IMG/VR virus record: IMGVR_UViG_3300028603_000018
Coordinates: 160,001 to 224,000 of that record
DNA: 64,000 nt
Direction: 5' to 3' (one strand)
Source: a virus
Taxonomy: Duplodnaviria; Caudoviricetes
Shown here: in pieces, positions 3,109 to 52,414 of the stretch
Numbering within the stretch: position 1 is the stretch's first letter
Layout of the letters: each line of letters opens with the position of its first letter
The notes under the pieces: generated by a model
The model's input: only the letters and a program-made list of their open reading frames with translations
What the model was told of the DNA's origin: nothing
Databases searched by the model: none
Program-made: the position numbers and the translations under genes

Positions 3109-4200
3109 TTAATATCCTAATAGCCGTTTAAATCTATCATTAACCTTTACTGCCTGATCTCTAGGTAGCATATGGTTAAATACTTGATCATTGGTATAAA
3201 AACCAATATGTCGCTGTACAGAGTTAATAGCACTTCTATTCCAGTCTCCTTTTGTAACAAAGTTATTTTCTAATAATAACTCTAATACTTCTAACCTAGA
3301 AATAGCTAATGCCCAGTTAACCTGTCGAGATCGATAAAAAGAAGGTAAATAACTAAGATCTAAAGCTGTCTCCATTTTAGCCAAAGGTATTTGTTTTAAT
3401 ACCTGATTAAAATGGAGATGTCTAGTTAATATTACTTCTTTCATTTGTTGATAAATGACATCTACTCTCTTAGACCAATCAGTCCAATAGAAAGGATGTT
3501 TATAAGTTAGTTTTGTTTGATCTAAATTAAAGTATAATCGATAGAACCGATTAAATAAAGCGTAGTCTAAATGCGAAGCACAAATATTAGGTAAAACAAA
3601 TTTATGAATAAAAGCATGAGTAGGTAAACTACCTTCTCTATTTCTTTTCTCAAAAGCCCTGAATCCTCTATACTGCATAAGAAGTTTAGGTATGTTGATA
3701 GCAATAACAGCATAACCACTTCCACCATATACTTTTGTATTTAGTATAGGAATACTTAAATCACTAAAAGGATGACATAACACTTTAACTGCTGTTATAT
3801 CTCTCCAATTAGCTAAAGCTTTTCTGTAATCAAATGACTCATTCTGAGAAATAAGTATTTCATTGACTCCAGGACCATAGAACTGATTTCTAAAAATCTT
3901 TCCACGAGCTGCACTGGAAGTTAAACCTAAAGACTGGGAAACGCTTAAAGTATTTCTCTCTAACCAATTATAGTAATCCGTATCAGAAAGTTCACTACCT
4001 TCACCTAATGCATTAATAATAGATACTAGTACAGTTTCAATAGGTGCTGTAAAAGTATTCGTTCTGTAATAGTCTACGACATTATTTAAGTTATATAATA
4101 AGCCTGATCGAATTAGATTCCATTCAGGGTTAGTAATTATACCTAAATTTACAGAAGAGGGTAAGTTAAATAATTGATACATAGCTAGTATATATTCCAA
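3109..4200 (-). CDS. Conserved jumbo-phage core protein (phiKZ gp52-like by position)
   Basis: 363-aa ORF, divergent from and just upstream of the chimallin locus; assignment by synteny only. Confidence 0.55.
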   Translation of the reverse strand: MEYILAMYQLFNLPSSVNLGIITNPEWNLIRSGLLYNLNNVVDYYRTNTFTAPIETVLVSIINALGEGSELSDTDYYNWLERNTLSVSQSLGLTSSAARGKIFRNQFYGPGVNEILISQNESFDYRKALANWRDITAVKVLCHPFSDLSIPILNTKVYGGSGYAVIAINIPKLLMQYRGFRAFEKRNREGSLPTHAFIHKFVLPNICASHLDYALFNRFYRLYFNLDQTKLTYKHPFYWTDWSKRVDVIYQQMKEVILTRHLHFNQVLKQIPLAKMETALDLSYLPSFYRSRQVNWALAISRLEVLELLLENNFVTKGDWNRSAINSVQRHIGFYTNDQVFNHMLPRDQAVKVNDRFKRLLGY

Positions 4201-4818: not shown

Positions 4819-4829
4819 ACATATCACTA
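4819..4829 (+). promoter_or_regulatory. phiKZ-type early promoter motif (ACATATCACTA) upstream of chimallin
   Basis: Resembles the phiKZ early consensus TATATTAC; same motif recurs intergenically at 10031, 15031, 20229, 29306, 38783 and 39211. Confidence 0.6.
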
Positions 4830-4907
4830 TCTTGTACAGGGGAGATTGAACGCTTCAATGTACAATAAACTTACGTAAGTTTTAATATTAAACAAAGGAA
4901 ATAAAAA

Positions 4908-6815
4908 ATGAGTCAACAAGATTCTGTTCGCTGGGGTAATACGCCTGAGTCTAACCGGCCTTCTGCAGCAGGTCAGGAAACAAATGAGAAAGTTCTCGCT
5001 AGTGATCAACTCGGACAAGAGCGTTACAATCCAGACGAACTGGGTGTTGGTATCTTTGGCGCAGGAATGCAGATGTCGTTCAACTCTGGTTCGGAAATTC
5101 TCTTCCGTGCCAAAGAAGCACTCGATGCCCAGGTTAAGAAAGCCTCTGAGCAACTGCGTCGTGAAAATCAGATCAAACTAACCATTCTAGACCGTAGTGA
5201 GCATAAACGCCTTCCTTACAGCGCTCTGGTTCTTTCCCTGACCAATCCGCTGGTAGCTAAAGGTACATCGTTCTTCGTCTTCGTTATTGCTGGTGATCAA
5301 GGTGCGATCGTCCGTAATGAAATTCTACCTAATAACCAAGGTCAGTGCGAAACGCTTTCCTTACCTGCTGATGCACTGAACCAAGTCATCAAAGAAGCAG
5401 GAGAAATCCTACGTGGTTTGAATCCTGGTGTAACAGATCTCTTCTCGGCTTCGGGTATTGTTGTAACGAACGACACTTTCTCTTGGGATAGTGAAAAAGA
5501 CGTTTATCAACTCCTGGCCCGTGGTTATAACTCTTGCCTAGCTGTACTTTCTAGTAAAGGTCCTCGTTGGGATGATGTTAACTTGGCAAAGGTAATGGGT
5601 TCAGAACTGGAAGTTGTTCTGCAACGCACTCGTGGCCAAGCTCAACCGCGTGACGTACTGGGGCGTCCGAAGCGTCGTGATCTGGAAGTGTCTCTGCGCA
5701 CTCGTCAGGTTATGAGTCCTCAAACAGGTGATATCATCCATAAAGCAGAAACGATTGCTAGTCTGTCTGTTTATGGTGATCTGCTTTGGGGTCCGGAGAC
5801 GGTTCAAAAAGTAAACCAGTTTGGACAACCTGTTGTCGAGACCAAAACCTATAAGCAGCGCGTTATCATCACCCAGATGCGTAACCACCAAGCTTATACG
5901 TTGGGTTCGCAGCTAATGTCCTTTATCCCAGCCATTGCTCTGTTCCAGCCAAAAGCAACTCACCAAGCTTTTATCCCATCACCTGATTCTTCGATGGGTA
6001 AGTCTGATGACGTTGGTGTTCTGCAACTGGAGGCTAAGTACCATCAAGGCAATATGAGCGGTCAAGAAGCTGCTCAGCGTGTGGATGTCTTTAATAGCCC
6101 GCCTACCCTGATCAGTGACTACCTGGAGAAAATCCTCTCTGACAATATTGAAGTCGCACTTGATATTGAAGTCGGTGGTGAGGACTACCTGCATAATTCA
6201 GTACTGCTCAAAGCAGCACTGTCTGGTAGCGGTGCTTCGGGTAATAAAGACCACGATCGTGCATATACTAAACTCGTTGAAACCATGACGGTTCTAACTA
6301 ATGGTAAGTTTGCTGATTTCTGGCAAACTGGTGCACCTATTGCATTCGTAGATTCAGTTCGTGAAGTAGGTCATTTCACCAACGATGATGGTAACCTGGA
6401 AGATACTCGTCATGTGGATACTATTTCCACGATGAATAAGTTTATCGAAAACAATCCGGATTACTATCGTGTTTGGTCTGATGCTCAAGTAGCAACTAAC
6501 CGCACAATGCAAGCTCGTATGCGCGACATGCGTAACGTAACTGAGTACATGATCTCGCCTCCGACTTACACGACTCGTGTATTCCGTGTGATCCTGTCCG
6601 CAGCCTTCGTTAAAGCATATTTCGATTCCATCTCAGCTCTGGGTATTCGTCTTAACCTGGTTCTGCCTAATGAGACTCGTACTGAAGATCGTACGGGTTA
6701 TGTGAGTACTTCTAGCTCTATTCAAATGGGTGTGGGTGCAGGTATGCTCAATACCTTTGGTGGTAGCGTTGCTGGTACAATGTCACCTTCCAACTTCCAA
6801 CGTTGGTCTGCGTAA
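4908..6815 (+). CDS. chmA: Chimallin, major phage nuclear shell protein
   Basis: 635 aa (known chimallins are ~630 aa), codon usage typical of a highly expressed gene (CTG, CGT, GGT), immediately upstream of the nvRNAP beta' N-terminal gene as for phiKZ gp54/gp55; G/S-rich flexible C-terminal tail. Confidence 0.8.
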   Translation: MSQQDSVRWGNTPESNRPSAAGQETNEKVLASDQLGQERYNPDELGVGIFGAGMQMSFNSGSEILFRAKEALDAQVKKASEQLRRENQIKLTILDRSEHKRLPYSALVLSLTNPLVAKGTSFFVFVIAGDQGAIVRNEILPNNQGQCETLSLPADALNQVIKEAGEILRGLNPGVTDLFSASGIVVTNDTFSWDSEKDVYQLLARGYNSCLAVLSSKGPRWDDVNLAKVMGSELEVVLQRTRGQAQPRDVLGRPKRRDLEVSLRTRQVMSPQTGDIIHKAETIASLSVYGDLLWGPETVQKVNQFGQPVVETKTYKQRVIITQMRNHQAYTLGSQLMSFIPAIALFQPKATHQAFIPSPDSSMGKSDDVGVLQLEAKYHQGNMSGQEAAQRVDVFNSPPTLISDYLEKILSDNIEVALDIEVGGEDYLHNSVLLKAALSGSGASGNKDHDRAYTKLVETMTVLTNGKFADFWQTGAPIAFVDSVREVGHFTNDDGNLEDTRHVDTISTMNKFIENNPDYYRVWSDAQVATNRTMQARMRDMRNVTEYMISPPTYTTRVFRVILSAAFVKAYFDSISALGIRLNLVLPNETRTEDRTGYVSTSSSIQMGVGAGMLNTFGGSVAGTMSPSNFQRWSA

Positions 6816-6886: not shown

Positions 6887-6904
6887 TAAATTTTGAGGAA
6901 AAAG

Positions 6905-9294
6905 ATGGGTATTAGCTTAGTTCTTCAAAATCATGATGAGATTTATAGGGAGCAGTTACACGCTACACCTATTCTCATAGATTTTCAAAGACTCACCGAG
7001 CATGAATATTTTAGTAAAGCATTATCAAATAAGCATCGCAATGCCTTAGCTGAGATTAATAAGCCGCAGGAAATTAACTATTTCCGAGACTCCACAATTG
7101 AAGATAAGGATAAAATTAACCGAACTTTCTATACTCGATACGTATCTGAGAAAACAAATACAGTTATTGAAGATATTCCGAGTTGTCAGTGCGGTGAATT
7201 TAATACTTATAAAAACTTAGGTTGTGTATGTAATGAATGTGGTACGATAGTATCCAGTAACCGCAGTATGGATTTACATCCTTTAGTATGGATCGCAGCA
7301 CCAGAAGGCATCCCTGCTCTAATTAATCCTACAGCTTATCGAATCATTGCCGGTCGTTTCGAGATTAGTAAATTCGATGTTATTCGTTGGATTATGGATT
7401 ATAATTATACAGCACCAGGTAAAGAACCTATTGCTGTAGAGCAGTTAGAAAGAATGGAGATCCCAAGAGGAATCATTAATTTCTACCATCATTTCGACAC
7501 TATTATCGAAACCTTGTTCGGTATGCGTTCTTTAAGTAAAGGACCTAATACAGCAAAGTTAGACGAAGAACTTAGAACTTTTATCAAAAATAATAGGGAT
7601 AAGATTTTCTCTAAGCATATTCCAATGCCTAACAAAACTTTGCTAGTAGTAGAGAGTACTAACTTTGCTACGTATATGGACCCAAAGTTAAGTGGTATTA
7701 TTGACGCACTTTGGTTGATGGTAGGAATTGATAGTGAGCACTCTAATCTCACTTTAAAGCAAAAAGAAATGCGTGTGATTAAGGCATTAGCTCAAATTGC
7801 TGAATATCACACTGAGTCTGATAAGACTTCTTTAGCTCAAAAAGGCGGTATCTTCCGACGACATGTCTTTGGATTTAGAGCTTGGTTAAGTTTTAGGACA
7901 GTAATCTCCTCAATTACTGAACCACACAACTTAAGAGATATCTATATTCCATGGAGTACAGCAGTTACTTGTTTTCAGTATCACTTAATAAATAAGTTAA
8001 GTAAGAGGTTAAATCCAAATACTGGAAAACGCTTTACTCCCCATGAAATCGATCTGTTTATTGAAGGTCATGTCAACAAATGGCATCCTTTACTTAGAGA
8101 GATCTTTGATGAATTATTAGCTGAGACACCAAATGGACGAGGTATCCCCTGCTTAAAGAATAGGAACCCTAGTCTTTATCGCAACTCTATCCAAAAGGTG
8201 TATATAACTAAGATCAAAGATGATATCACTGATGTTACAACAAGTATTAGTATCTTAACTGTTCGTCCCCTCAATGCTAAAAAGATAAGATATTTATTAA
8301 TAGATATTTTGTTATTGGCCATTACACTAGTAATAGTGTACTTGAATCCTCTCTAACTGACTGGGAACTCCTACAACAATAGGACAATCAGCAGCGAAGC
8401 TTTGTCTTAATAATACTCAGACAAAGAACGTTCAACGATCAGAGAAACCAATAAATGTAACTCGTATTAAAAGACGAGAATAAGCTAGATATTATCTAGA
8501 CGAAGGGAGTATCGTAGCGCCAAGTGGTGGGTATAACCCTTAAAGACGAAACGGGAGGCTTCCTAACTAATAGGAAGAAGATATGATCTGAGCCTTACAG
8601 TAATGTAAGGAGGGTGTCTTAGCACACCTGCTTATGAGAGCGTGTTAAAACACAACGGCATAAGTGGACAATTCTGGATAAACGAAGCTTTTATAGCTAT
8701 ACAGTCCCTTTCTTTAGAAATAAAGAAATGGTAACTTTTTGAATTGCTGGGAACCCCTTAGAGCCTGACTCACGACAACGCAGTTGGAAACGACAAACGT
8801 GATCGTAAAAAAGAAGTCTGGATTGGGCAATCAGCCGGTAAGCTCCTAACCCTCACAATTATTGAGAGGTATGGGGAATCCTCAACGATCATCCGGTAGC
8901 GCGGAGTAGAACCCCAAGTGGGGAAGAAGCGGAAAGTACCTGACCAGGTAATGCTGAAGGTAGTGATATGATCTATGCTCCTATGGGAAAGCCATAGGCA
9001 GGTGCCTTAGCGTACCGGCTCTTTGAGAGCGTACTTAATGTACAACGGCTTAGAGCGGACATTAGGTTCGATGGTGACGAGCTTAACTTCTCTATTATTC
9101 CGGATCAGAGGTTAGCTGAAGGACTAGAGAGACTCTCTGTTATCTTTAGTGCTTTTGATCTGACTAATCCTCGGAGAGTGTCTGGTAGTGTAGCATTTCC
9201 TAAAACAGTACTTGCAACTATTGCTAACTACTTACACAGTAAAAAGGAAGTTATTCCAGCTATGCAGTCTAGAATGATCGAACTGTATAGTTGA
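6905..9294 (+). CDS. Non-virion RNA polymerase beta' N-terminal subunit (phiKZ gp55-56.1-like); three exons 6905-8278, 8677-8679, 9067-9294 (534 aa)
   Basis: Zn-finger CQCG...CNEC, KGGIFRRHVFG, RNPSL motifs; splicing rebuilds PLNA-D-FDGDELNF, the catalytic NADFDGD motif. Confidence 0.9.
8279..8676 (+). ncRNA. Group I intron 1 (ORF-less) in nvRNAP beta'
   Basis: Follows exon U (GCT), ends in G; core elements CTAACTGACTGGGAAC, AATCAGCAG, GTTCAACGATCAG, AAGATATGATCTG; P3 CCTCTC/GGGAGG, P7 GATCA/TGATC. Confidence 0.85.
8680..9066 (+). ncRNA. Group I intron 2 (ORF-less) in nvRNAP beta'
   Basis: Follows U of GAT, ends in G before TTC GAT GGT GAC; core elements GAATTGCTGGGAAC, AATCAGCCG, CTCAACGATCA, GATATGATCTA; 3' domain homologous to intron 1 (GAGAGCGT...ACAACGGC...GGACA). 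Confidence 0.85.
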
Positions 9295-20305: not shown

Positions 20306-23300
20306 ATGAGTCTAACCAGACCTAAACCAGATCCGATGATTAAAACTAATCAACTCCATAGAGAATTGCTTAGTGTAAGTGGATTTGATTCTTTTGCTGC
20401 TCATGGAACCTCTCCAAGAAAGCAGATGTTTGCAACTCATTTAGGACAGTGTCTTGTAGTAAAACATTCCACAGAACGCAGTTATCAAACTGGTATGGAA
20501 AGAGCTTACGCTAAATATACATTTAGTATTAAAGCTCCTACCACAATGCATATCATCGCTATTGTTAACCGGTATCCAGAGATTCAAGGCGTAGACAAGA
20601 TTAAATTTAATCCCCAGTCTATTGTCGTCTACGAAGATCTTATTACTAGAACGATCTCAGCAATGGATGTACGTCGATTCAAAGCTAACCATCCTCACTT
20701 TGGCTTTGATTATGTTGCTAGACCAGCTTCTCAATTATTACGAGCTGGAGAGACTATTGAGAAAGATACTATCTTCTACGATAGTCCTTCTGTAACAGAA
20801 AATGGTGGATACAAGTATGGTGTAGAACTAAACATCCTTCATGCTACCTTACCAGCTACTTCTGAAGATGGTAGCATGATCTCTGAATCAGCTGCTAAGA
20901 AGTTCACCTACATGACGTTCGAAACTCGTGTAGCGGATTGTGGTGCTGATGAGATTCCTATCTTCTTATATGGTACGGATGAACAACCTAAGATTTGTCC
21001 AGATATCGGAGAGAAAGTCAGGGATGATGGTCTACTTTTTGTAACTAGAAAAGTCGATGATAACTTAGCCCCCTTTTACCAATCTAAACACGCACTTAGA
21101 AAATACTTTCCAAAGTTTGATACACCTATCTATGTACCACCAGGTGGGACAGTAATTGATATCCAAGTCCATCACGATCCTTTATGTAAGCAAGCTCGTG
21201 TACCAACTGGAATGGACGATCAGTTATTAAAGTATCAACGGTCTTTAATGAACTTCCATAAAGCAATTAAAGACATCTGGTCTAAGTACTTAAGAGAACG
21301 AGGTGAGGGATTAAAACTCTCTCCAGAGTTTGAACGCTTGGTTGTCGATGCAATTGCTTATACGGATGATAAAGCTAATGCACGTCCTCAACGACAATAC
21401 CGACTAGCTCGACTGGGTGATTGGCGTATTGAATTTACTGTTAGATACGAAAATGTACCTAGTGTAGGTAATAAGGCAACTGGTTGCTTCGGAGATTCTC
21501 ACATAGAGCCTGTTAACTATATTTAGGTATATAGTATAGGCCAATGAAATACTAGAAATTATTAACGATCTTTTTAATTTGCAGCGTTTGGCCTGTATTT
21601 TTCTAATTTAGGAGGTCAAATGACAAAGCAGTATAAATTAGTACCGGGATCAGAGTCAGTACGTTATGATGTAATAAATGACACTTATACTAGATTTAAT
21701 CCGAAAGAAGATGGGTTTGTAGAAAAAGGTTCCCGAATAACCTTTAACTACCATAACCGAACCATCACGGTAGATAGAGAATGGCTTCGTTTATTTACAA
21801 TCTTTGAAACAAAGCTTCCCGAGCAAGTTTGGATTCATGTAGAAAAAATTAGGTTCGTAGACTGCTATAATAAAGTACTTCGTTTACCCACCAATAAAAT
21901 AATGGTGTTGGACGAATGCTTTCACTATCATCCGTATTATCGTATTGTTCCAGGCTTTACTCATCTATTCATCAGTAAGAATGGTGTGGTAATTGATTGG
22001 ACTGATAACTTTAAACCCGTTTCTATTTTAGATGATCAGTATAAAAACTTAAACATCTATGATCCTGAACGAGGTTTTGTTAGATCAGTTCCACTACATC
22101 GCTTACTTGGTTTGGCTTGGATTAATAATGACAATTACCAAGAAAAGCCCATAATGAATCACATAGATGGAAATAAGTATAATAATCAGCTGAGTAATCT
22201 AGAATGGGTCTCTCATCAAGAAAATAACGTTCACGCTAGTGAGGTCGGGTTAAATACCGATTCTCTAGCATGTAAAGCTCGGGATGTAGTAAGTGGTGAG
22301 GTACAAACATTCAACAGTCTTGGTCAGTTATCTCGCGCTTTAGGTGTTGGAGCAGTTAATCTGGAGCGGTTAAATACCACCCGCCCAACTTCTTTAATTG
22401 GTGACCGATATGAAGTTCGTTTATTAGGTGATGACACGCCTTGGTTATTTGATACCGTAGACGATCTACCAAAGGTTAAAGGACGTTATCAAATCAATGT
22501 TACACATGCGAAGCAGGGTAAGTTAACTTTCCATGATGTTAGAACAGCGGTGTTTAATTTGAAATACCGTAAGACGTGGGGATGTGGTAATGTCAGGACT
22601 TTACAACAGTTCTTAGAAAAAGATCCGTATGTTCAGGATTTTGAGATTATTGATCATTATAAATACACAGCAACAGTTCAGGCGAAAAACGTAGATACAG
22701 GAGAAGTAGTGGAAGAACCTACCTTTACTTATCTTTCTAGACGTTTAAAGCTTCAACGTAGTGCTATTAAGAAAATCCTGAATTCGGGTCAGGTACAGTG
22801 TTATCATGGCTGGTTGATTCGTTTAACGAGTGAAGATCCTTGGCCGGAAGATTATCAGATACATGGTCAGAGACGTATTAGTGTGGTAGCTAAACACAAT
22901 AAGACAGGCCAATGTTTGAAATTTCCCACCCTAAGAGCTACTGCAAGGCACTTCGGGATAGATCGTAAAACCATTTCAGTTCGTATTAATAATAAAACGG
23001 ACTACGATGGCTGGTATTTTGAATTGGTTTAATTTACAGGTAAGAATTTATTTGGTCTCCCTAAATAGTGATATTTAGTAAAAAACCTCTCTAACTGCGG
23101 GAACATCCTAAAGTCTTAAATTACTTCTTACTCATGGAAACGTAGAGTAATGCCTCGACCAGTAATGGAAGTTCGAGGGACAGTAAAAACATTTAAGAAT
23201 ATATGGGTAACCGACGCAACAAAGCTCCTAAGTCTAGAGATATGGAGTGTGTTCAACGACTATCGACGTAGCGCCTAAGTAGGTAATCGAGGATTTTAAA

Positions 23301-24419
23301 GCGAAACGGGAGGCCCTCAACTAGCTTAAGTTGAGGTGAAGATATAGTCTGTTCCCCAAGGAAAGCTTGGGGCGGGTGTCGTAGCACACCGGATATGTAT
23401 GGAAACGATACATATTGGACAATAAGAAAGGTATTATCGTAACAGTAGTTCCAGATGAGAAAATGCCTGTTGATGATCGGGGTGTTCGAGTGGAATTTAT
23501 CACAGATCCTCTAGCTACAATTGCTCGGAGTACTTTAGGTCGAGTGATGGAACCCTTTCTAAATGCTGCTGGACAGAATATTGTTAGAGAGATAGCATTA
23601 GCTCTTAATCTGAAATGGGGAACTGTAGTAACGCCACAGTTACTAGAAACTAAGAACGTTAATGGGTTAGTCAGGAAGCAGTTTGAAAAACTCAAAGACT
23701 TCTATTATACGGTATCATCTGAAAAGATGGGTCCTTGGCATGAGAATCTAACAGATAAAGAACTCTATGAGCATCTGAGTTCTGTTATTACTCGAACCTT
23801 ACCTATTATGTATAAACCACCTTCTGATGAGAAAGAGATGGTGGATATTATCATGGAAATTAATGAGAAGTATCCTCCTTATGAATCTCATATCACTTAT
23901 GTAGGTAACTCTGGTAAGACCGTACGGTCTAAAGAAAAGTTTATTATCGGAAGAGCTTATGTTATTCTCTTAGATAAAACAGGAGATTCTGCTGCTGCTA
24001 TTGCCTCAGGTAAATTAGGTCACTTTGGTGTTCCTAGTCAAATTACTCGTCAAGATAAATACACGAGTCCTAATCGACGACAGCATACTCGTATCTTTGG
24101 TGAAGCAGAGATGCGAATCATTGCTTCGTATTGTCCGTCTTGGGTGGCTGCTGAAATCATTGATAGGAACTCCAATAAAGATAGCATGGGAGTTATTATT
24201 AACGGATTACTCACCACAGATAAACCAACTAATACTTTTGAGCTAATCAATAGAAAGGAGCATAAGTACAATGGTGGTAGACCTATTCAGATCGTACGAC
24301 ACTTAGCACTTACAGCAGGTTGGGGTTTCCAATATAAACCTTATCAGCCTCTTTGGATGAAAGGTAATAAAGTAAAAGATTTTGTACTAGAGAGCTTAGA
24401 CAAAACAGAAGCTGTTTAA
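20306..24419 (+). CDS. Non-virion RNA polymerase beta subunit (phiKZ gp71-73-like); exons 20306-21496 and 23427-24419
   Basis: SEDG, PDIGEKV motifs; splicing rebuilds GNKATGCFGD-KGIIV (the GDK...G.KG motif); MP..D.G and RIFGEAE in exon 2. Confidence 0.9.
21497..23426 (+). mobile_element. Group I intron 3 carrying an HNH homing endonuclease
   Basis: Follows U of GAT, ends GGACAATAAG; core at ~23055-23426: CTAACTGCGGGAAC, GTTCAACGACTA, AAGATATAGTCT, P3 CCTCTC/GGGAGG. Confidence 0.88.
21620..23032 (+). CDS. Intron-encoded HNH homing endonuclease
   Basis: LHRLLGLAW...NHIDGNKYNNQLSNLEWVSHQENNVHA HNH motif; NUMOD1-like helix-turn-helix repeats; SD AGGAGG. Confidence 0.9.
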   Translation: MTKQYKLVPGSESVRYDVINDTYTRFNPKEDGFVEKGSRITFNYHNRTITVDREWLRLFTIFETKLPEQVWIHVEKIRFVDCYNKVLRLPTNKIMVLDECFHYHPYYRIVPGFTHLFISKNGVVIDWTDNFKPVSILDDQYKNLNIYDPERGFVRSVPLHRLLGLAWINNDNYQEKPIMNHIDGNKYNNQLSNLEWVSHQENNVHASEVGLNTDSLACKARDVVSGEVQTFNSLGQLSRALGVGAVNLERLNTTRPTSLIGDRYEVRLLGDDTPWLFDTVDDLPKVKGRYQINVTHAKQGKLTFHDVRTAVFNLKYRKTWGCGNVRTLQQFLEKDPYVQDFEIIDHYKYTATVQAKNVDTGEVVEEPTFTYLSRRLKLQRSAIKKILNSGQVQCYHGWLIRLTSEDPWPEDYQIHGQRRISVVAKHNKTGQCLKFPTLRATARHFGIDRKTISVRINNKTDYDGWYFELV

Positions 24420-40264: not shown

Positions 40265-42536
40265 CTACTCTACTGTTATCGCTTCATGATGGATGCGGTC
40301 TATTTCTCCTGCAAGAAGATCTTCTTCAAAAGCTTTTAGTAAGCTATCAGTATTAGGTAAATCTAACATAACACGACAAACCTCCATTGCGTTAGTAGCT
40401 CCACCTGTGATATTTAATCCCTGCATTCTAGTAGTGTATTCATCTTTACCAGAGACAGAGATAATTTCAGCTATAGTAGTTTCTTTTGATACATTAAGAA
40501 TAGCAATCGATGTAGGATAGCTTGATGTGATATCTAGCTTCCGAGTATATGTCACTAATGATATTATTAATATTATCACTAATGACAAGGATACGGAAAT
40601 GGACTATATCTTCTTCCTTTAACAAAAAAAGGAAGCCCTCCGTTTCGCTTTAAAGGAATTACTATATATTCATTTTCAATATATACACCTGCCTTGTGAG
40701 GCGCTACTCTACTGGGTTTAGTCATGGGTAGCTTGTGACTCCCATAACACGCCTGTCGATAGTCTCTGAACCTTCTACCTACATAATAGGTAGCTTGGCT
40801 GCGGATCTTCTCATCCTTTTCTTTTTTACTATACCTGAGTAGTTAGTTCAGCCCTCATGTCTATTACTAGCATGAGTTAGTAGAAAAGGCTCTTTGAGAC
40901 GTTCCCGTCAATTAGAAGGGTTTCAACTTAAATCTCTTTAAGTTAGGGGACCTGTTTTGATTTCTTTCCTTGAATCAAATTCAGTTTCGTTAGTATCACA
41001 TTACACTAACCCAGAATCCTGATTCTTAAGAAAAGAAAAAAATACATCAAGTTAATCCCCTGCATATAAGCGTATATTAGTGGCAAAGCCAGGTAGTTCA
41101 ATAATAAAATCTAAACCTGTTTCTTCTGTCCAGGCTTGTAATGTGATGATCCAGCCTTCTAAGCCAAAGATCTCTTTATCTAAAGGATCTTCCATCTCAT
41201 CACTAGTAGTTCCAATTACCTTACCCTGTTCTAAGAATTCAAAATGCCATTCATCGATCTTTCTCTTAGGTTGACTAGAGTAGTTAACGAGATCAGAAGT
41301 TTGTGAGAAGATGGGTAAGGTACTAGATAAGTCTTGAGTTTTCTCGTCGAGGACTTCTAAAACAATAGGGTCGACAATGTTATAAACACAATACTCAATC
41401 TTGTAGTCAGCCTGCATCAAAATATGCCAGTCACCTGTATCTTCAGTTTTAACTTCAATATAAGGGAAGTCTAACTTCTGGACACCTGTTTCTTCAATAT
41501 CTAGAATAGCTGATAAGGCATAGCTTTGTTTCTTAGCTTGTCCCATTCGGTTAAAGTTATAAGCTGCCATGGCATCAACAAACTGAAATGAAGCAGGAGT
41601 AATAACAGAATGCCATTGCTCCTCAACATCTTTAGGCATGTATTTACCTGAAGCTGTTTTCTTTTGTCTAGAACCTACTTTATACCAGAAGTGTTTAAAA
41701 GGACCAGGTACACTAGGATCAGAGAAAATCTCAGCTGGATTAAGTCGATACCTATCGATAGTTTCTAAGAACCGAGAGAATTCGAAATCGATGTTCCAAA
41801 TACTGCAAAAATCAGGCTTCCAAATATGAAGCTGATTAATCATTTCGATTAATACTTCAGCAGGACTGTTAACTAACAATACTCGAAGCTTTAACCCTCG
41901 TTGCTCAATGAGTTCTTTACAGTTCTCATTAAAGCATTTGTGAATTCTTTCCTCTGGGCTACTAATACCTTCTAAGAAGTTCCTATCACAGATATGCAGT
42001 ACTTCATTCTTAAAGGAAACTGTTCCCATTAAGATAGCCGAAGTCTCCATATCTGTTTCAATATCTAGACCTGCTACAGTATGTGGAGAAGGACTTACTC
42101 CGACTTTTTCCATATGTTGGAAATATCTATGTTTAATGATGGCAGTAGAAGATACTTCAGCACCGTAGATATAAGGAGACCTAAAGATTCGACGAAGACC
42201 TTGACCAGCGTATTGGTAGAGATTTAAACTTTGTACTAAGCGATCTGCTAGCTCGGATTGCGTACATTCAAATCGAGTGAGTTTATTTATGTCCTCAATT
42301 TCTTTCTTTTGTTTATGGTTTCTAAAACCTTCTTTAGTAATATAGAAAGGTCTTTTATAATTCTTTACAAGTCTGACATTAGGAAAACGACGACCATCTT
42401 TAAGATGAATAACTTCTTTAATAAGATGGAAATCGTCTTTTGTTCTTCCTTTTAAAAACTTAGGTGTAGGGCAATGGACAGCATGTTTACACTCAATAGT
42501 TAAAATGTCTTCTTTTGAGTAAGGTAGATTAGTCAT
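40265..42536 (-). CDS. Family B DNA polymerase N-terminal subunit (3'-5' exonuclease plus motif A; phiKZ gp82-like); exons 42536-41055 and 40537-40265
   Basis: ExoI GLDIETD, ExoII WNIDFE, ExoIII YNIVD; splicing rebuilds motif A YAGD-LDITSSYPTS. Confidence 0.88.
40538..41054 (-). ncRNA. Group I intron 4 (ORF-less) in DNA polymerase
   Basis: Minus strand: follows U of GAT; CTAATTGACGGGAAC, ATCCGCAGCCAAG, GTTCAGAGACTA, AAGATATAGTCC, P9 hairpin, terminal G. Confidence 0.88.
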
Positions 42537-48959: not shown

Positions 48960-49433
48960 ATGAGTAATTTACTTTTCACTCCAATTGAATCTAAGATACA
49001 TAAAGGTTGGTTTGAAATCCCTGGATATAATCAGTACCTAGCAAATGAGAAAGGACAAATCCTCTCTAAGAAGACACGTAATTATACCTACGGAGGTAAT
49101 GCTGGTCGTTATCTTAAAGTAGCTGTATTTAGAGATAATGAACCTAGAGTTTCTCTACGATACGTACATGTCTTAGTAGCTAGTGCTTTTTATGGTATTC
49201 CTGATGGTGTTAATATGGTAGTTAAACATAAAGACAATAATCGAAGGAATAATAAGAAGTCTAATTTAGAATGGGGTACTCAATCGAGTAACATCAAACA
49301 AATCTACGAAGATGGGTTGAAGTATTCTAAACAATACGCACACCTTTATCCAGATAGGTTCGCTAGTCGATTAGGTAAAATGGAAAGTCTAGTTGATTCT
49401 GATCTAGGTGAATCAGTTCTCTTAGAGTGGTGA
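48960..49433 (+). CDS. Free-standing NUMOD4/HNH endonuclease
   Basis: WFEIPGYNQY, VHVLVASAF, VKHKDNNRRNNKKSNLEW. Confidence 0.8.
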   Translation: MSNLLFTPIESKIHKGWFEIPGYNQYLANEKGQILSKKTRNYTYGGNAGRYLKVAVFRDNEPRVSLRYVHVLVASAFYGIPDGVNMVVKHKDNNRRNNKKSNLEWGTQSSNIKQIYEDGLKYSKQYAHLYPDRFASRLGKMESLVDSDLGESVLLEW

Positions 49434-49443
49434 TAATTTAAAA

Positions 49444-49481
49444 GCATAAATAGGAGTCTTTTTAAGACTCCTATTTATGCC
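49444..49481. terminator. Bidirectional family hairpin
   Basis: GCATAAATAGGAGTCTT-TTT-AAGACTCCTATTTATGC perfect inverted repeat between convergent genes. Confidence 0.8.
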
Positions 49482-49489
49482 TTATATAG

Positions 49490-52414
49490 TTAGACTAGTT
49501 TATGACGAATAAAGTTAACACTAACGTCTTCCTCAACAATAAGAATACCATCAGCACGAGCTACTAAACGTTTTCTTAAAGAGAGTCGGTCTGTTAAGTT
49601 AATAATAGTTACCATAGGAAAATCATTACTCCAACCGCCTAAACCAGTGATCTTAACATCCATAACATCATTACCATACAATGCTTTTAATTCAACAATC
49701 ATATCACTAATAGAAACAACAGCATTTGTTAAGTAATCATTAAGTGCTTGAATAGTCACTCTAGTTAACTGTTGTTTTAGTGCTTCATCATCATCGACTT
49801 TATCAGAGATGTGTAACTCTACATTAAAAGCTTGTTGAGCAGGTAAACTCGTTGTTAAACCAGCTCCATACATGATCTCAACAGGACCTGTAGTTGTCTT
49901 CGGATAAAAGAAGATTTTAGTCTTCTCTAATAAAGTAGGTGTTAATGATTTAATATCATTAATAATCCAATTGATAATTAAATCAACTAACTCTTTACGA
50001 TAATCAATAATGATCTTATCTGTACTAAAGAAGTACACACCATCGACCATCATAAAATCCACTTGTCTATAAACACGACGAGGTGAAATAACAACAGGTT
50101 CTCCAGTTACTTCATCAATAACTGTACTACCTGCTAAATGTCGATAAATAGGATTTCCTTGACCATCTAATTGAGGATCTCCCTTATGATGAAGAATGTT
50201 AAAATAAGGTTTACCGTCGTTATCGAATAATATATTCGTTCCATCAGGCCCTTTTTCATAAACATCCTCTAAGTAATAAGCAGGGACATCAAAAGGATAA
50301 GTCTCATAGCGTTCAGTACCTGGAATAGTTCTAGCTCTAATCCATAATTCTTTTAATGCATCACCAAACTTTAGACGAATCTTCTCAACACTGATAGCGG
50401 CAATACGATTAGGTAATAAGAACTTACCTAAATAGCTATCAGCTTCATTAGTCCTCCATTGAGAACCTAATGTCGCACTTGTTGAGAAAGTAATAACAAA
50501 ATCATTAAGTAGAGCAGTCTCAGTTAAACGAGGTGTTTGCTCAAACATAAAGAATTCTGTTAGCTCTAACCCATCTCTTCGTGTAACGTTAAAGTTAGAG
50601 GATAAATCAAATCGATAAACTCTTGAACCTTCATCTGTCTTACCAATTAACTCACCATTTTGATAAGCATAAGAAATCTCACCAATAGGTCTAAAAGAAA
50701 TCTGAGCATGAACTTCATTATCATTAAGAAGTTTTAAATCATCAGTTTCAGTAGTAGTGACTTCTAATTGATATCCAGAACTAGTCTTTAAGAACCGATA
50801 AGAAGAAATGGTAGAAGAAAGTAAAGTAAGGTCATTCTCAGCAATGAAAGATTTACTTTGAGCCTCAGGAGCATCTAATCGATACACTCGTGCATCAAAC
50901 TCAGACTCCAGCATTTCCATAACGTAATAGAAAGGTGTATAGAAGTAATTACCACCCGTTACTTGAGAAGCTTGTTGGTCTATAGGGAGAGCTTTAATTG
51001 CATCGATATTACTCTTAGGAACTAGATATGTCCTACCATTTCTATTTTGAAATAAAGTCTCTGGAGTAAAAGTAATACTTTCCCCATTATCAATAACTGT
51101 TCCAATATCAATAGCATCAATAGCATTAAAGAGAACAGATTGAATAGATAAACTAGCTGCTGTAATTAATTGATTATTAGTTGGATCAGGTAATTGTTTA
51201 GTAGCTAGATAAATTCGATTAGTGATATTATCTACGTTCTTTACAATATCAAAATCTTGATCTGCTAAAATAGTCTCAATCTGATCAGGCGTAATAGCAG
51301 GAACTCTAGGACCCATCGTATTGTAAATAACACGCCGTCTTAGTTCTTCTAAGTCTAAACTATTTCTGCCGCCATTGATAGTATCATTAGACCATACTTG
51401 GACATCTTCTAAATGAGAGAGGTTCTTTGTATAGACACTCTGACCAATATTATCAATAGTAGACCAGCTAAAATTAAAAGCAGTAGAATTTAAGTTAGCT
51501 AGATCAAGACTAACATGTCCTTTAGTCGTATAGACATCAATTCTTACTTTACCTACTAAATTAAACCTATTGATGTAGATAATAGGAATATGGACTTGTA
51601 CACTTTGTTCTAAGACTTTTACAGCAGCTGTAATAGTATCAGGGTTATAGACTAAGTCAGTGTGAGTAACTGCGATTTCTTCCCAGAGATCGGTATTACC
51701 TACAGTTTCCGATCTAGAGATATAAACTCTTACGAAATAAAAGTCATCTTGAAAGTTAACAGTAGTAAATAAAGGAGAGGTGGGACTAAAATCGGCTTTT
51801 TGTGAAGTGATCTCATATTGGAAAGTATCAAACTCCATAACAAACCAATCTGTATTATCTAAAGTGATAATATTAAAAGGAATTAAGTTTGTCTCAACAT
51901 CACCAATAGGACTACCTTCATTAACATCCCATACAACAGTTAATCCACCATGATTCATCTCCCTGATCTCAATGGGATAAATAGTACTGAATACTAAATC
52001 CCCTGGACCAAATCGACTATTACGAGGAATAACAATTTTCTTGTATCCTCTATCTGGTACAGCTACTAAGTTATTAATTAAATCATCATAATGGATCTTT
52101 AATTGAAACTTAGCCTTAGAGGGTAGAGCAAAGCGACCAATATAGTCCTGATCACTCATATGTAAATATAAGTCATCAGCTTGTCTTGCATTAACAGGAT
52201 AGAGCTTACGATAAGAACTCTCAAACCCATTTAAAAGAGAACTAATTCCACTAGCACTTACTTCTTGTAATTGCACCATCGGGTTAGAAGGATCGTATAC
52301 GTTTAATTCTCCTCCATTAATTTCCCGTAGTAGTCGTAAATTAATTCTTTGAATTGCTGAAGGATTATTAATAACCCTTTTTAATGCTTCTTTATAAGCA
52401 GTAACTTGACTCAT
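49490..52414 (-). CDS. Virion structural protein, probable baseplate wedge (phiKZ gp87-like)
   Basis: 974 aa; GG..LDLEELRRRV...AITPDQI resembles baseplate J/gp6 motifs; synteny. Confidence 0.7.
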   Translation of the reverse strand: MSQVTAYKEALKRVINNPSAIQRINLRLLREINGGELNVYDPSNPMVQLQEVSASGISSLLNGFESSYRKLYPVNARQADDLYLHMSDQDYIGRFALPSKAKFQLKIHYDDLINNLVAVPDRGYKKIVIPRNSRFGPGDLVFSTIYPIEIREMNHGGLTVVWDVNEGSPIGDVETNLIPFNIITLDNTDWFVMEFDTFQYEITSQKADFSPTSPLFTTVNFQDDFYFVRVYISRSETVGNTDLWEEIAVTHTDLVYNPDTITAAVKVLEQSVQVHIPIIYINRFNLVGKVRIDVYTTKGHVSLDLANLNSTAFNFSWSTIDNIGQSVYTKNLSHLEDVQVWSNDTINGGRNSLDLEELRRRVIYNTMGPRVPAITPDQIETILADQDFDIVKNVDNITNRIYLATKQLPDPTNNQLITAASLSIQSVLFNAIDAIDIGTVIDNGESITFTPETLFQNRNGRTYLVPKSNIDAIKALPIDQQASQVTGGNYFYTPFYYVMEMLESEFDARVYRLDAPEAQSKSFIAENDLTLLSSTISSYRFLKTSSGYQLEVTTTETDDLKLLNDNEVHAQISFRPIGEISYAYQNGELIGKTDEGSRVYRFDLSSNFNVTRRDGLELTEFFMFEQTPRLTETALLNDFVITFSTSATLGSQWRTNEADSYLGKFLLPNRIAAISVEKIRLKFGDALKELWIRARTIPGTERYETYPFDVPAYYLEDVYEKGPDGTNILFDNDGKPYFNILHHKGDPQLDGQGNPIYRHLAGSTVIDEVTGEPVVISPRRVYRQVDFMMVDGVYFFSTDKIIIDYRKELVDLIINWIINDIKSLTPTLLEKTKIFFYPKTTTGPVEIMYGAGLTTSLPAQQAFNVELHISDKVDDDEALKQQLTRVTIQALNDYLTNAVVSISDMIVELKALYGNDVMDVKITGLGGWSNDFPMVTIINLTDRLSLRKRLVARADGILIVEEDVSVNFIRHKLV

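Follow-up and report, generated by a model that had tools for sequence, protein, structure and literature searches.

A predicted one-codon exon between two group I introns in the catalytic motif of a jumbo phage RNA polymerase gene

Introduction

Can a single codon stand as an exon of its own between two group I introns, and if it can, how would it be recognized by the ribozymes on either side? The question is raised by a gene for an RNA polymerase subunit in the stretch of phage DNA analysed here, a window of 64,000 nucleotides (nt) that spans positions 160001-224000 of contig C90 (IMG/VR record IMGVR_UViG_3300028603_000018), in an assembly of 4.1 Mb and 109 contigs. In this gene the codons for the Mg-binding loop NADFDGD are interrupted, such that the exon upstream ends with the codons for Asn and Ala, the exon downstream begins with those for FDGD, and the codon for the first Asp is found in neither. 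A preliminary description of the locus had proposed that two tandem group I introns flank a 3-nt exon, GAT, which supplies the missing residue, that an exon of this size is too short for a normal P1 helix and might impose an obligate order of splicing, that exon skipping could act as a regulatory switch, and that no described phage example was known. Here we re-examine these proposals by comparison with related phages. That comparison gives good support to the reading of tandem introns with a one-codon exon between them, and we consider it very probable that the gene, which is predicted to encode the beta'-N subunit of the non-virion RNA polymerase (nvRNAP), is divided into three exons by two independent introns, with a true exon of one codon between them.

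Relatives of the gene comprised 33 proteins from a homology search, for which the contigs were fetched, and 49 IMG/VR loci. Splice sites in these relatives were placed by hand, guided by Rfam matches, and individual relatives are referred to below by locus label (L003, L005 and so on).

Results

The interrupted gene (6905-9294, on the plus strand, as are all features of the gene given below) is a homologue of gp55, the nvRNAP beta'-N subunit of phage phiKZ (PDB 7ogp chain A, PHIKZ055; E 5e-64). It matched 287 jumbo-phage records by tblastn, the best of them being phages of Ralstonia and Burkholderia with identities near 40%, and is present in a single copy in the assembly. Exon 1 (6905-8278), delimited by its translation, the match to 7ogp chain A and the alignment of homologues, ends in RPLNA (CTC AAT GCT for LNA); its open reading frame (ORF) opens with TTG at 6893, homologues begin at the Met encoded at 6905, and read-through of the unspliced exon meets a stop at 8356. 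Exon 3 (9067-9294), identified by translation, by tblastn of homologue C-termini and by alignment, starts TTC GAT GGT GAC (FDGD), reads FDGDELNF and onward to the stop, and so encodes the last 75 residues of the protein, with the remaining pair of catalytic Asp. Between them lies the predicted micro-exon GAT (8677-8679), which restores the frame, would supply the first Asp of NADFDGD and is bounded by independently predicted splice sites. Joining 6893-8278, 8677-8679 and 9067-9294 encodes a product containing TVRPLNADFDGDELNF (LNADFDGD), which aligns without gaps with two uninterrupted homologues, one from Ralstonia phage RP12 (LNCDFDGD) and one from Burkholderia phage FLC9 (LNADFDGD), and this bears out the proposed source of the missing residue. 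Membership of the beta'-N family is evident from the gp55 homology, while the NADFDGD loop becomes whole only after both predicted splicing events.

The predicted boundaries of the micro-exon are set by evidence that is independent of the need for an Asp codon, namely a pattern at the 3' ends of related introns and a conserved internal guide. Related introns mostly terminate in GGACA(A/C/T)-N2-4-G, as in GGACAAGAAG before GAT in L005, GGACAAGTG before GAT in L008, and GGACAATAAG and GGACACTAGG, each before TTT, in L009 and L061, respectively. Intron 1 terminates in GGACAATTCTG at 8676, directly before GAT, and intron 2 in GGACATTAGG at 9066, directly before TTC, and both fit this pattern; furthermore, the junction formed by GGACATTAGG and the following TTCGATGG agrees with those of L061, L047 and L052. 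A U precedes each 5' splice site (U8278 and U8679) and a terminal G closes each intron (G8676 and G9066). The exon ends, the position of GAT, the intron ends and the rule of U before and G last were all as first described.

Both intervening sequences are predicted to be group I introns lacking an ORF. Intron 1 (8279-8676, 398 nt) occupies what we term site a, after the GCU codon of Ala, and matches the Rfam model RF00028 in full length (8285-8610, model positions 1-253), with 68.7 bits where the gathering score is 50. Intron 2 (8680-9066, 387 nt) occupies site b, after the GAU codon of the first Asp, and also gives a full-length match (8680-8999; 44.6 bits, E 3.4e-10) in a focused scan, with which a genome-wide scan agrees. 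Both assignments further draw on introns of relatives at the same sites and on the 3' end pattern. Within 8279-9066 no plus-strand ORF of at least 40 amino acids was found except the read-through of exon 1, so that neither intron appears to encode a homing endonuclease; HNH genes are present in the same-site introns of L005, L009 and L010.

Of the core, the motifs J3/4-P4, J6/7-P7 and P7' were recognised and the G-C pair is kept, and both introns carry a compensated P7 variant, GAUCA/UGAUC replacing GACUA/UAGUC. Their 3' thirds are homologous, in agreement with what had first been noted of their 3' ends, and the hairpins of this region covary between them (GGUGU/ACACC versus GGUGC/GUACC, and GCGUG/CAC versus GCGUAC/GUAC). 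The distal 3' hairpin of intron 1 (TGAGAGCGTG to CACAACGGC, 8635-8659), located by pattern search and stem covariation, has a counterpart in intron 2 at 9024-9049 that was located by the same search; these are the only two occurrences of the pattern in the window, and 100 shuffles gave none. Across seven introns (the window's two and five from relatives), P2, P3, P8, P9 and P9.1 were common to all, with 23 of 35 pairs predicted by RNAalifold showing compensatory changes. The P2 hairpin of intron 2 (UUUCUUUA GAAA UAAAGAAA, 8709-8728), which is the landmark for placing the guide, was identified by fold and covariation and has compensatory changes at all seven of its pairs across these introns.

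In relatives, each of the two sites is found occupied by itself. Site a holds an intron in the window, L005, L007, L008, L011, L044 and L059, and site b in the window, L006, L009, L010, L012, L013, L047, L049, L050, L052, L053, L054, L060 and L061. Site a is used without site b in L005, L008 and L044, where GAT TTY GAC GGT is contiguous after the intron, and site b is used without site a in L006, L009, L047, L049, L050, L052, L060 and L061, in which exon 1 runs on through NAD; among the loci examined, the window alone has both. Site-b introns of relatives pass the RF00028 gathering score (L012 at 83.9 bits, L006 at 72.7 and L054 at 68.5). Together with the full-length matches at both positions, this separate usage upholds the proposal of two distinct introns, and the locus shows what is seen around micro-exons of the mitochondrial type: two independent cores flanking an exon that restores conserved residues in frame. 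The window's two closest relatives (73% and 70% protein identity) have differing combinations of sites, and occupancy therefore changes quickly.

How three bases could suffice as an exon is suggested by the internal guides. The predicted guide of intron 1, GGC (8317-8319, assigned by hand), pairs with GCU (8276-8278), the splice-site pair being U8278.G8317. GGC lies directly 5' of P2 in most GCU-targeting introns (the window, L005, L007, L008, L011, L003_IA and L054_x, the first motif intron of L054), and the compact site-a intron of L044 has GGU at the hand-assigned position. The predicted guide of intron 2, GUCC (8704-8707), pairs with the micro-exon through G8704.U8679, U8705-A8678 and C8706-G8677, and its fourth base, C8707, pairs with the terminal G of intron 1 (G8676) only before intron 1 is removed. 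All six site-b introns compared have GUC(C/G) immediately 5' of P2, and GUCC was also read in L053 and L054. Set against the end of the 5' exon, the guide region reads CAGUCC with GAU in the window, AUGUCC with GAC in L006, GUGUCG with C GAU in L009, GGUCC with GAU in L010, GAGUCC with G GAC in L012, and GGUCC with G GAU in L013. The fourth guide base covaries or pairs in L009 (GUCG with CGAU) and in L012 and L013 (GUCC with GGAY) and is mismatched in L006 and L010, and the splice-site pair of L006 and L012 is C-G instead of U.G. Both lineages thus recognise only 3-4 exon bases, and a 3-nt exon is therefore no shorter than their normal P1.

These comparisons lend no support to two elements of the preliminary description. 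One is the contention that the exon is too short for P1 and so may make the order of splicing obligate, as the guides need 3-4 nt and L006 and L010 manage with 3 base pairs (bp). The other is the guide first suggested for intron 2, TTTATAGC, which lies at 8690-8697 and not at 8692-8698. It can pair with the spliced GCUGAUAAA at -2.7 kcal/mol, yet the splice-site pair would then be U-A in place of U.G, and nothing equivalent occurs in other site-b introns, the conserved guide being GUCC at 8704-8707. It was consequently not accepted as P1, and might serve as a competing helix. A pairing of the guide with the segment after P9.1, returned by RNAalifold, was likewise set aside, being weak and mismatched in intron 2.

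The arrangement in the window is one of several in which the codons of this loop are interrupted. An uninterrupted motif was found in 35 of the 49 IMG/VR loci. Beyond sites a and b, insertions were placed after N (phiKZ and L053), after DFD (L003 and L015), after DFDG (L005, L008, L027, L032, L044 and L054), after the last D (L053), and at upstream GCU or CU positions (L003, L027 and L054). The resulting mini-exons measure 20 nt in L027, 16 nt in L003, and 12 nt in L005, L008 and L044. In nucleus-forming jumbo phages, at least eight group I insertion sites, by boundaries placed by hand, therefore fall within the 21-nt coding run of NADFDGD and the codons just before it, and as many as three introns are present together. 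Between 15 and 20 of the 33 homologous proteins are ORFs cut off inside or just before the motif. With so many introns in the motif, gene callers truncate an essential polymerase subunit and miss its mini-exons.

Several of these relatives have features of their own. L054 (5083-6608) has four RF00028 matches (68-88 bits) in the beta'-N gene, three of them in or just before the NADFDGD codons, and its mini-exons are CCAAATGCTGAT (12 nt) and TTTGATGGT (9 nt). L053 (5188-6598) is apparently interrupted three times, once behind N and once each behind the first and the last D, with exons GCGGAT (6 nt, Ala-Asp) and TTTGATGGTGAT (12 nt); its first core alone reaches E 0.001 in Rfam, and its last exon reads ALILILNLDN. 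In L003, the closest relative at 73%, a second intervening sequence of 248 nt follows DFD (4819-5066) and the frame is restored after it, a layout that recurs in L015. RF00028 gave no match to L003 4819-5066 even at E 1, and the sequence may belong to a different intron subgroup or be another kind of element. The site-b intron of L006 (3763-4333, 571 nt) has two blocks resembling AATTGCTGGA, near 3900 and 3995, and may enclose the remnant of a second core.

The stretch was also compared with further DNA contigs, and its layout is not an assembly artefact. An identical 1.5 kb stretch occurs in Logan contigs of two landfill runs, which are possibly the source of the window, and the phage is abundant, with a depth of 230 in one run. 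A biofilm metagenome from another study contains pieces of both introns, with approximately 2-5 differences per 100 bases within the intron pieces. No joints indicative of an intron-less allele were seen among the DNA contigs compared with the stretch. Among the matches listed from a collection of 5.8 billion proteins, none was a close protein of the spliced form (approximately 539 amino acids); only read-through ORFs of this phage and the 70-73% relatives were present.

Directly upstream of the beta'-N gene lies a predicted gene for chimallin, the phage nuclear shell protein (4908-6815, plus strand; PF25677, E 5.4e-26), which marks the contig as that of a putative nucleus-forming jumbo phage. 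The order of chimallin followed by beta'-N is common to the window, L003-L012 and phiKZ. Elsewhere in the window RF00028 gave two further matches above the gathering score, at 23032-23372 on the plus strand (77.6 bits) and 40577-40969 on the minus strand (64.4 bits), and with two more upstream on the contig the total for C90 is six.

Discussion

We propose that the only beta'-N gene of this chimallin-encoding jumbo phage consists of three exons, separated by two group I introns that are independent of each other and lack an endonuclease. The introns would occupy neighbouring sites in the DNA for the Mg-binding loop NADFDGD, the first behind the Ala codon GCU and the second behind GAU, the codon of the first Asp. 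GAU would be a true one-codon exon, and ligation on both of its sides would be needed for an active polymerase. The micro-exon would form the whole exon half of the P1 of intron 2 and would also provide the first bases of the 3' exon of intron 1. Such an exon would be workable because both intron lineages read the 5' exon through a very short guide before P2 (GGC for GCU, GUC(C) for GAU). Since removal in either order would leave the other intron in the context of a single-intron relative, no order need be obligatory.

The energetics of the junction nevertheless suggest a preference. The calculated duplex energy of the P1 of intron 2 is -3.6 kcal/mol with intron 1 attached (CUGGAU/AGUCCC), compared with -0.3 in the spliced context. 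The minimum-energy fold of 8664-8732 consists of P1 (8676-8679 with 8704-8707, GGAU/GUCC), an L1 hairpin and P2, and P1 is absent from the local minimum-energy fold once intron 1 is removed. The P1 of intron 2 would thus be more stable while intron 1 is attached, because C8707 pairs with G8676, from which we would expect intron 2 to be kinetically favoured to react first, while intron 1 is present, but no obligate order. A candidate P10 partner in intron 1, UUAUU (8312-8316), pairs with GAUAA (8677-8681; duplex -0.3 versus +1.0 kcal/mol), and as GAUAA includes the first two bases of intron 2, all 5 bp would be available only with intron 2 attached. As a separate observation, GGAC at 8666-8669, in the GGACAA tail of intron 1, is fully complementary to the guide GUCC at 8704-8707 and appears in a near-optimal alternative fold (-11.2 versus -11.4 kcal/mol), where it could serve as a decoy 5' splice site.

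These contacts between neighbours allow a more elaborate reading, in which the ribozymes are coupled: the guide of intron 2 would read the terminal G of intron 1, the P10 of intron 1 would read the start of intron 2, one order of removal would be preferred or even obligate, and a departure from it, or skipping of the exon, would give a NAFDGD subunit in frame. We regard such coupling as unlikely. Slightly less likely again is its use as a switch, the view taken in the preliminary description, in which splicing would be obligately ordered and skipping from exon 1 to exon 3 would give a catalytically dead NAFDGD subunit that regulates or times the nvRNAP; were coupling real, the one-codon exon would be a kinetic gate on middle and late polymerase production. 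What such a switch would build on is the G-C pair that the guide of intron 2 gains from the terminal G of intron 1, with P1 in the local minimum-energy fold only then, and the possible use of the first two bases of intron 2 by P10 (GAUAA/UUAUU). The shared P7 variant and distal 3' hairpin could also let one ribozyme use the 3' splice site of the other, a skipped product would remain in frame, and exon skipping between similar group I introns has been reported in phage Twort, as summarised in PMC3073962. The fourth P1 pair, however, need not be an adaptation, because a conserved guide C and a universal terminal G give it automatically, and the site-b introns of L006 and L010 have 3 bp to the exon in genes that otherwise look intact. 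Moreover, once either intron has left, the other would see a normal single-intron context, the intron 1 P10 is not conserved, and nothing points to a dead subunit being made or used. Relatives with exons of 6-20 nt, or with no intron, further indicate a changeable layout and not a conserved device. The arrangement is best read as selfish introns accumulating at an invariant codon run with U-rich ends, rather than as a regulatory device.

Several observations weigh against the three-exon reading as a whole. Intron 2 falls below the Rfam gathering score (44.6 versus 50 bits), and a default Rfam scan therefore shows one match at the locus instead of two; of the two RF00028 matches that had been anticipated, the second was found in the focused scan, and only the first reaches the threshold. 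P4-P6 and P7 derive solely from the Rfam alignments, as MAFFT was unable to align them across relatives. A P1 of 3-4 bp is very weak, and the first intron bases (AAAC...) fail to extend it, so that splicing may need tertiary contacts or a protein; the candidate P10 of intron 1 is weak as well, and is not conserved in relatives. None of the contigs of the biofilm variant spans 8670-8775, and so none crosses the micro-exon. Finally, no RNA run containing the stretch was listed and only DNA contigs matched; we therefore infer splicing, inclusion of the micro-exon, the order and efficiency of removal, and skipping.

The low score of intron 2, the short P1 and the lack of an ORF in either intron would also suit a locus in which one intron, either the second or the first, is crippled and relies on its neighbour or on a phage or host protein, or in which the gene is no longer functional. 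We give this explanation little credence. The exons are intact and conserved, in a gene that is present in a single copy and should be essential, the phage carrying it is abundant, and a diverged variant in the biofilm keeps both introns. In addition, the core motifs are kept, the P7 changes are compensated, and site-b introns of relatives score 68-84 bits. Last, it is highly improbable that two alleles were joined by misassembly, that one intron is nested in the other as a twintron, or that one long intron is spliced out and the Asp codon has another source: the contig is metagenomic and its introns share short identical blocks, but the noted blocks are of about 10 nt or less, far under assembly word sizes, the 1.5 kb stretch is identical in contigs of two runs (possibly the source), removal in one piece gives NAFDGD with no other GAY flanked by valid splice sites, and deletion of 8680-9066 leaves CTGGAT before TTC, with no terminal G from which an outer intron could be reconstructed, both cores being complete by themselves.

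If the gene has indeed been interrupted by two independent introns, how might they have come to lie side by side? The guides GGC and GUC differ by one base, and their targets, GCU and GAU, are adjacent and also one base apart. These differences fit, without demonstrating, a scenario in which ORF-less introns may have spread along the motif by guide-directed reverse splicing. Whether intron 2 arose by duplication of intron 1 can be argued both ways: the two share the P7 variant and the distal 3' hairpin, but their 5' halves resemble the same-site introns of relatives, and a tree of the 3' domain does not make them sisters. In the same tree, introns of one genome often cluster (in L027, z with d; in L053, y with e; in L044, a near d), which hints at intron duplication or sequence exchange within genomes.

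The one-codon exon represents a limiting case for exon recognition by group I introns, in that the whole 5' exon information available to intron 2 would consist of three bases. At approximately 0.9 kb and without a protein component, the locus would also provide a compact system in which to test the minimal length of P1, interference or help between neighbouring ribozymes, and the frequency of exon skipping. No phage or bacterial exon this short was found in the literature searched, in agreement with the preliminary description. Exons of comparable size between group I introns have been published for mitochondria: a 1-bp exon in placozoan cox1 supplies part of a His codon, with RNA evidence (PMC5436844), 3-bp exons are known from fungal mitochondria, as cited in PMC12308204, and mitochondrial mini-exons of fewer than approximately four codons occur regularly (PMC10352661). 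The window resembles these mitochondrial cases in that an exon of at most one codon, which would supply an invariant catalytic residue, has an independent group I core on either side, and in a probable origin by insertion of a second intron beside a first. It differs in that the mitochondrial examples are organelle genes with introns of other subgroups, and with RNA evidence in the placozoan, whereas the window belongs to a phage and its two introns are ORF-less and read from DNA.

Among phages, the closest parallel is gene 55 of phiKZ itself. A group I intron was predicted at gp55/56 in 2002 (Mesyanzhinov, as cited in PMC10914365), and ONT-cappable-seq detected no splicing at the gene 55 intron under the conditions tested (PMC10914365). 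In our comparison, the intron of gene 55, within which the HNH gene 56 lies, separates AAT (N) from GCT (A) (L014 4165-5562, corresponding to phiKZ 49164-50561). In the phiKZ record 55, 56 and 56.1 are given as coding sequences of their own, and the solved protein (PDB 7ogp) is named PHIKZ055 + PHIKZ056.1. The two phages share the gene, its position after chimallin, the interrupted motif, the U before the 5' splice site, the terminal G and the core blocks, but phiKZ has a single, HNH-bearing intron three bases upstream of site a and no micro-exon. A second chimallivirus case is the group I intron of PhiPA3 gp210, in the beta gene of the virion RNA polymerase (PMC11620839; reviewed in PMC12908238). 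Here too the interruption of an RNA polymerase gene falls immediately behind codons for conserved catalytic Asp residues, but it consists of a single intron whose nicking HNH endonuclease acts in phage-phage competition, whereas the introns of the window are without an endonuclease.

In phage Twort, multiple similar introns occur in one phage gene and exon skipping is observed, according to the summary in PMC3073962. In the window, too, related group I introns share a single phage gene and exon skipping is a plausible side reaction, although the gene is a different one. With twintrons it shares the presence of two ribozyme cores in one gene interruption, but in the window these lie side by side with an exon between them. 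Group I introns at the catalytic residues of chimallivirus polymerases are already known, and the arrangement does not reveal a new mechanism on present evidence; rather, the locus is an extreme variant of a known phenomenon.

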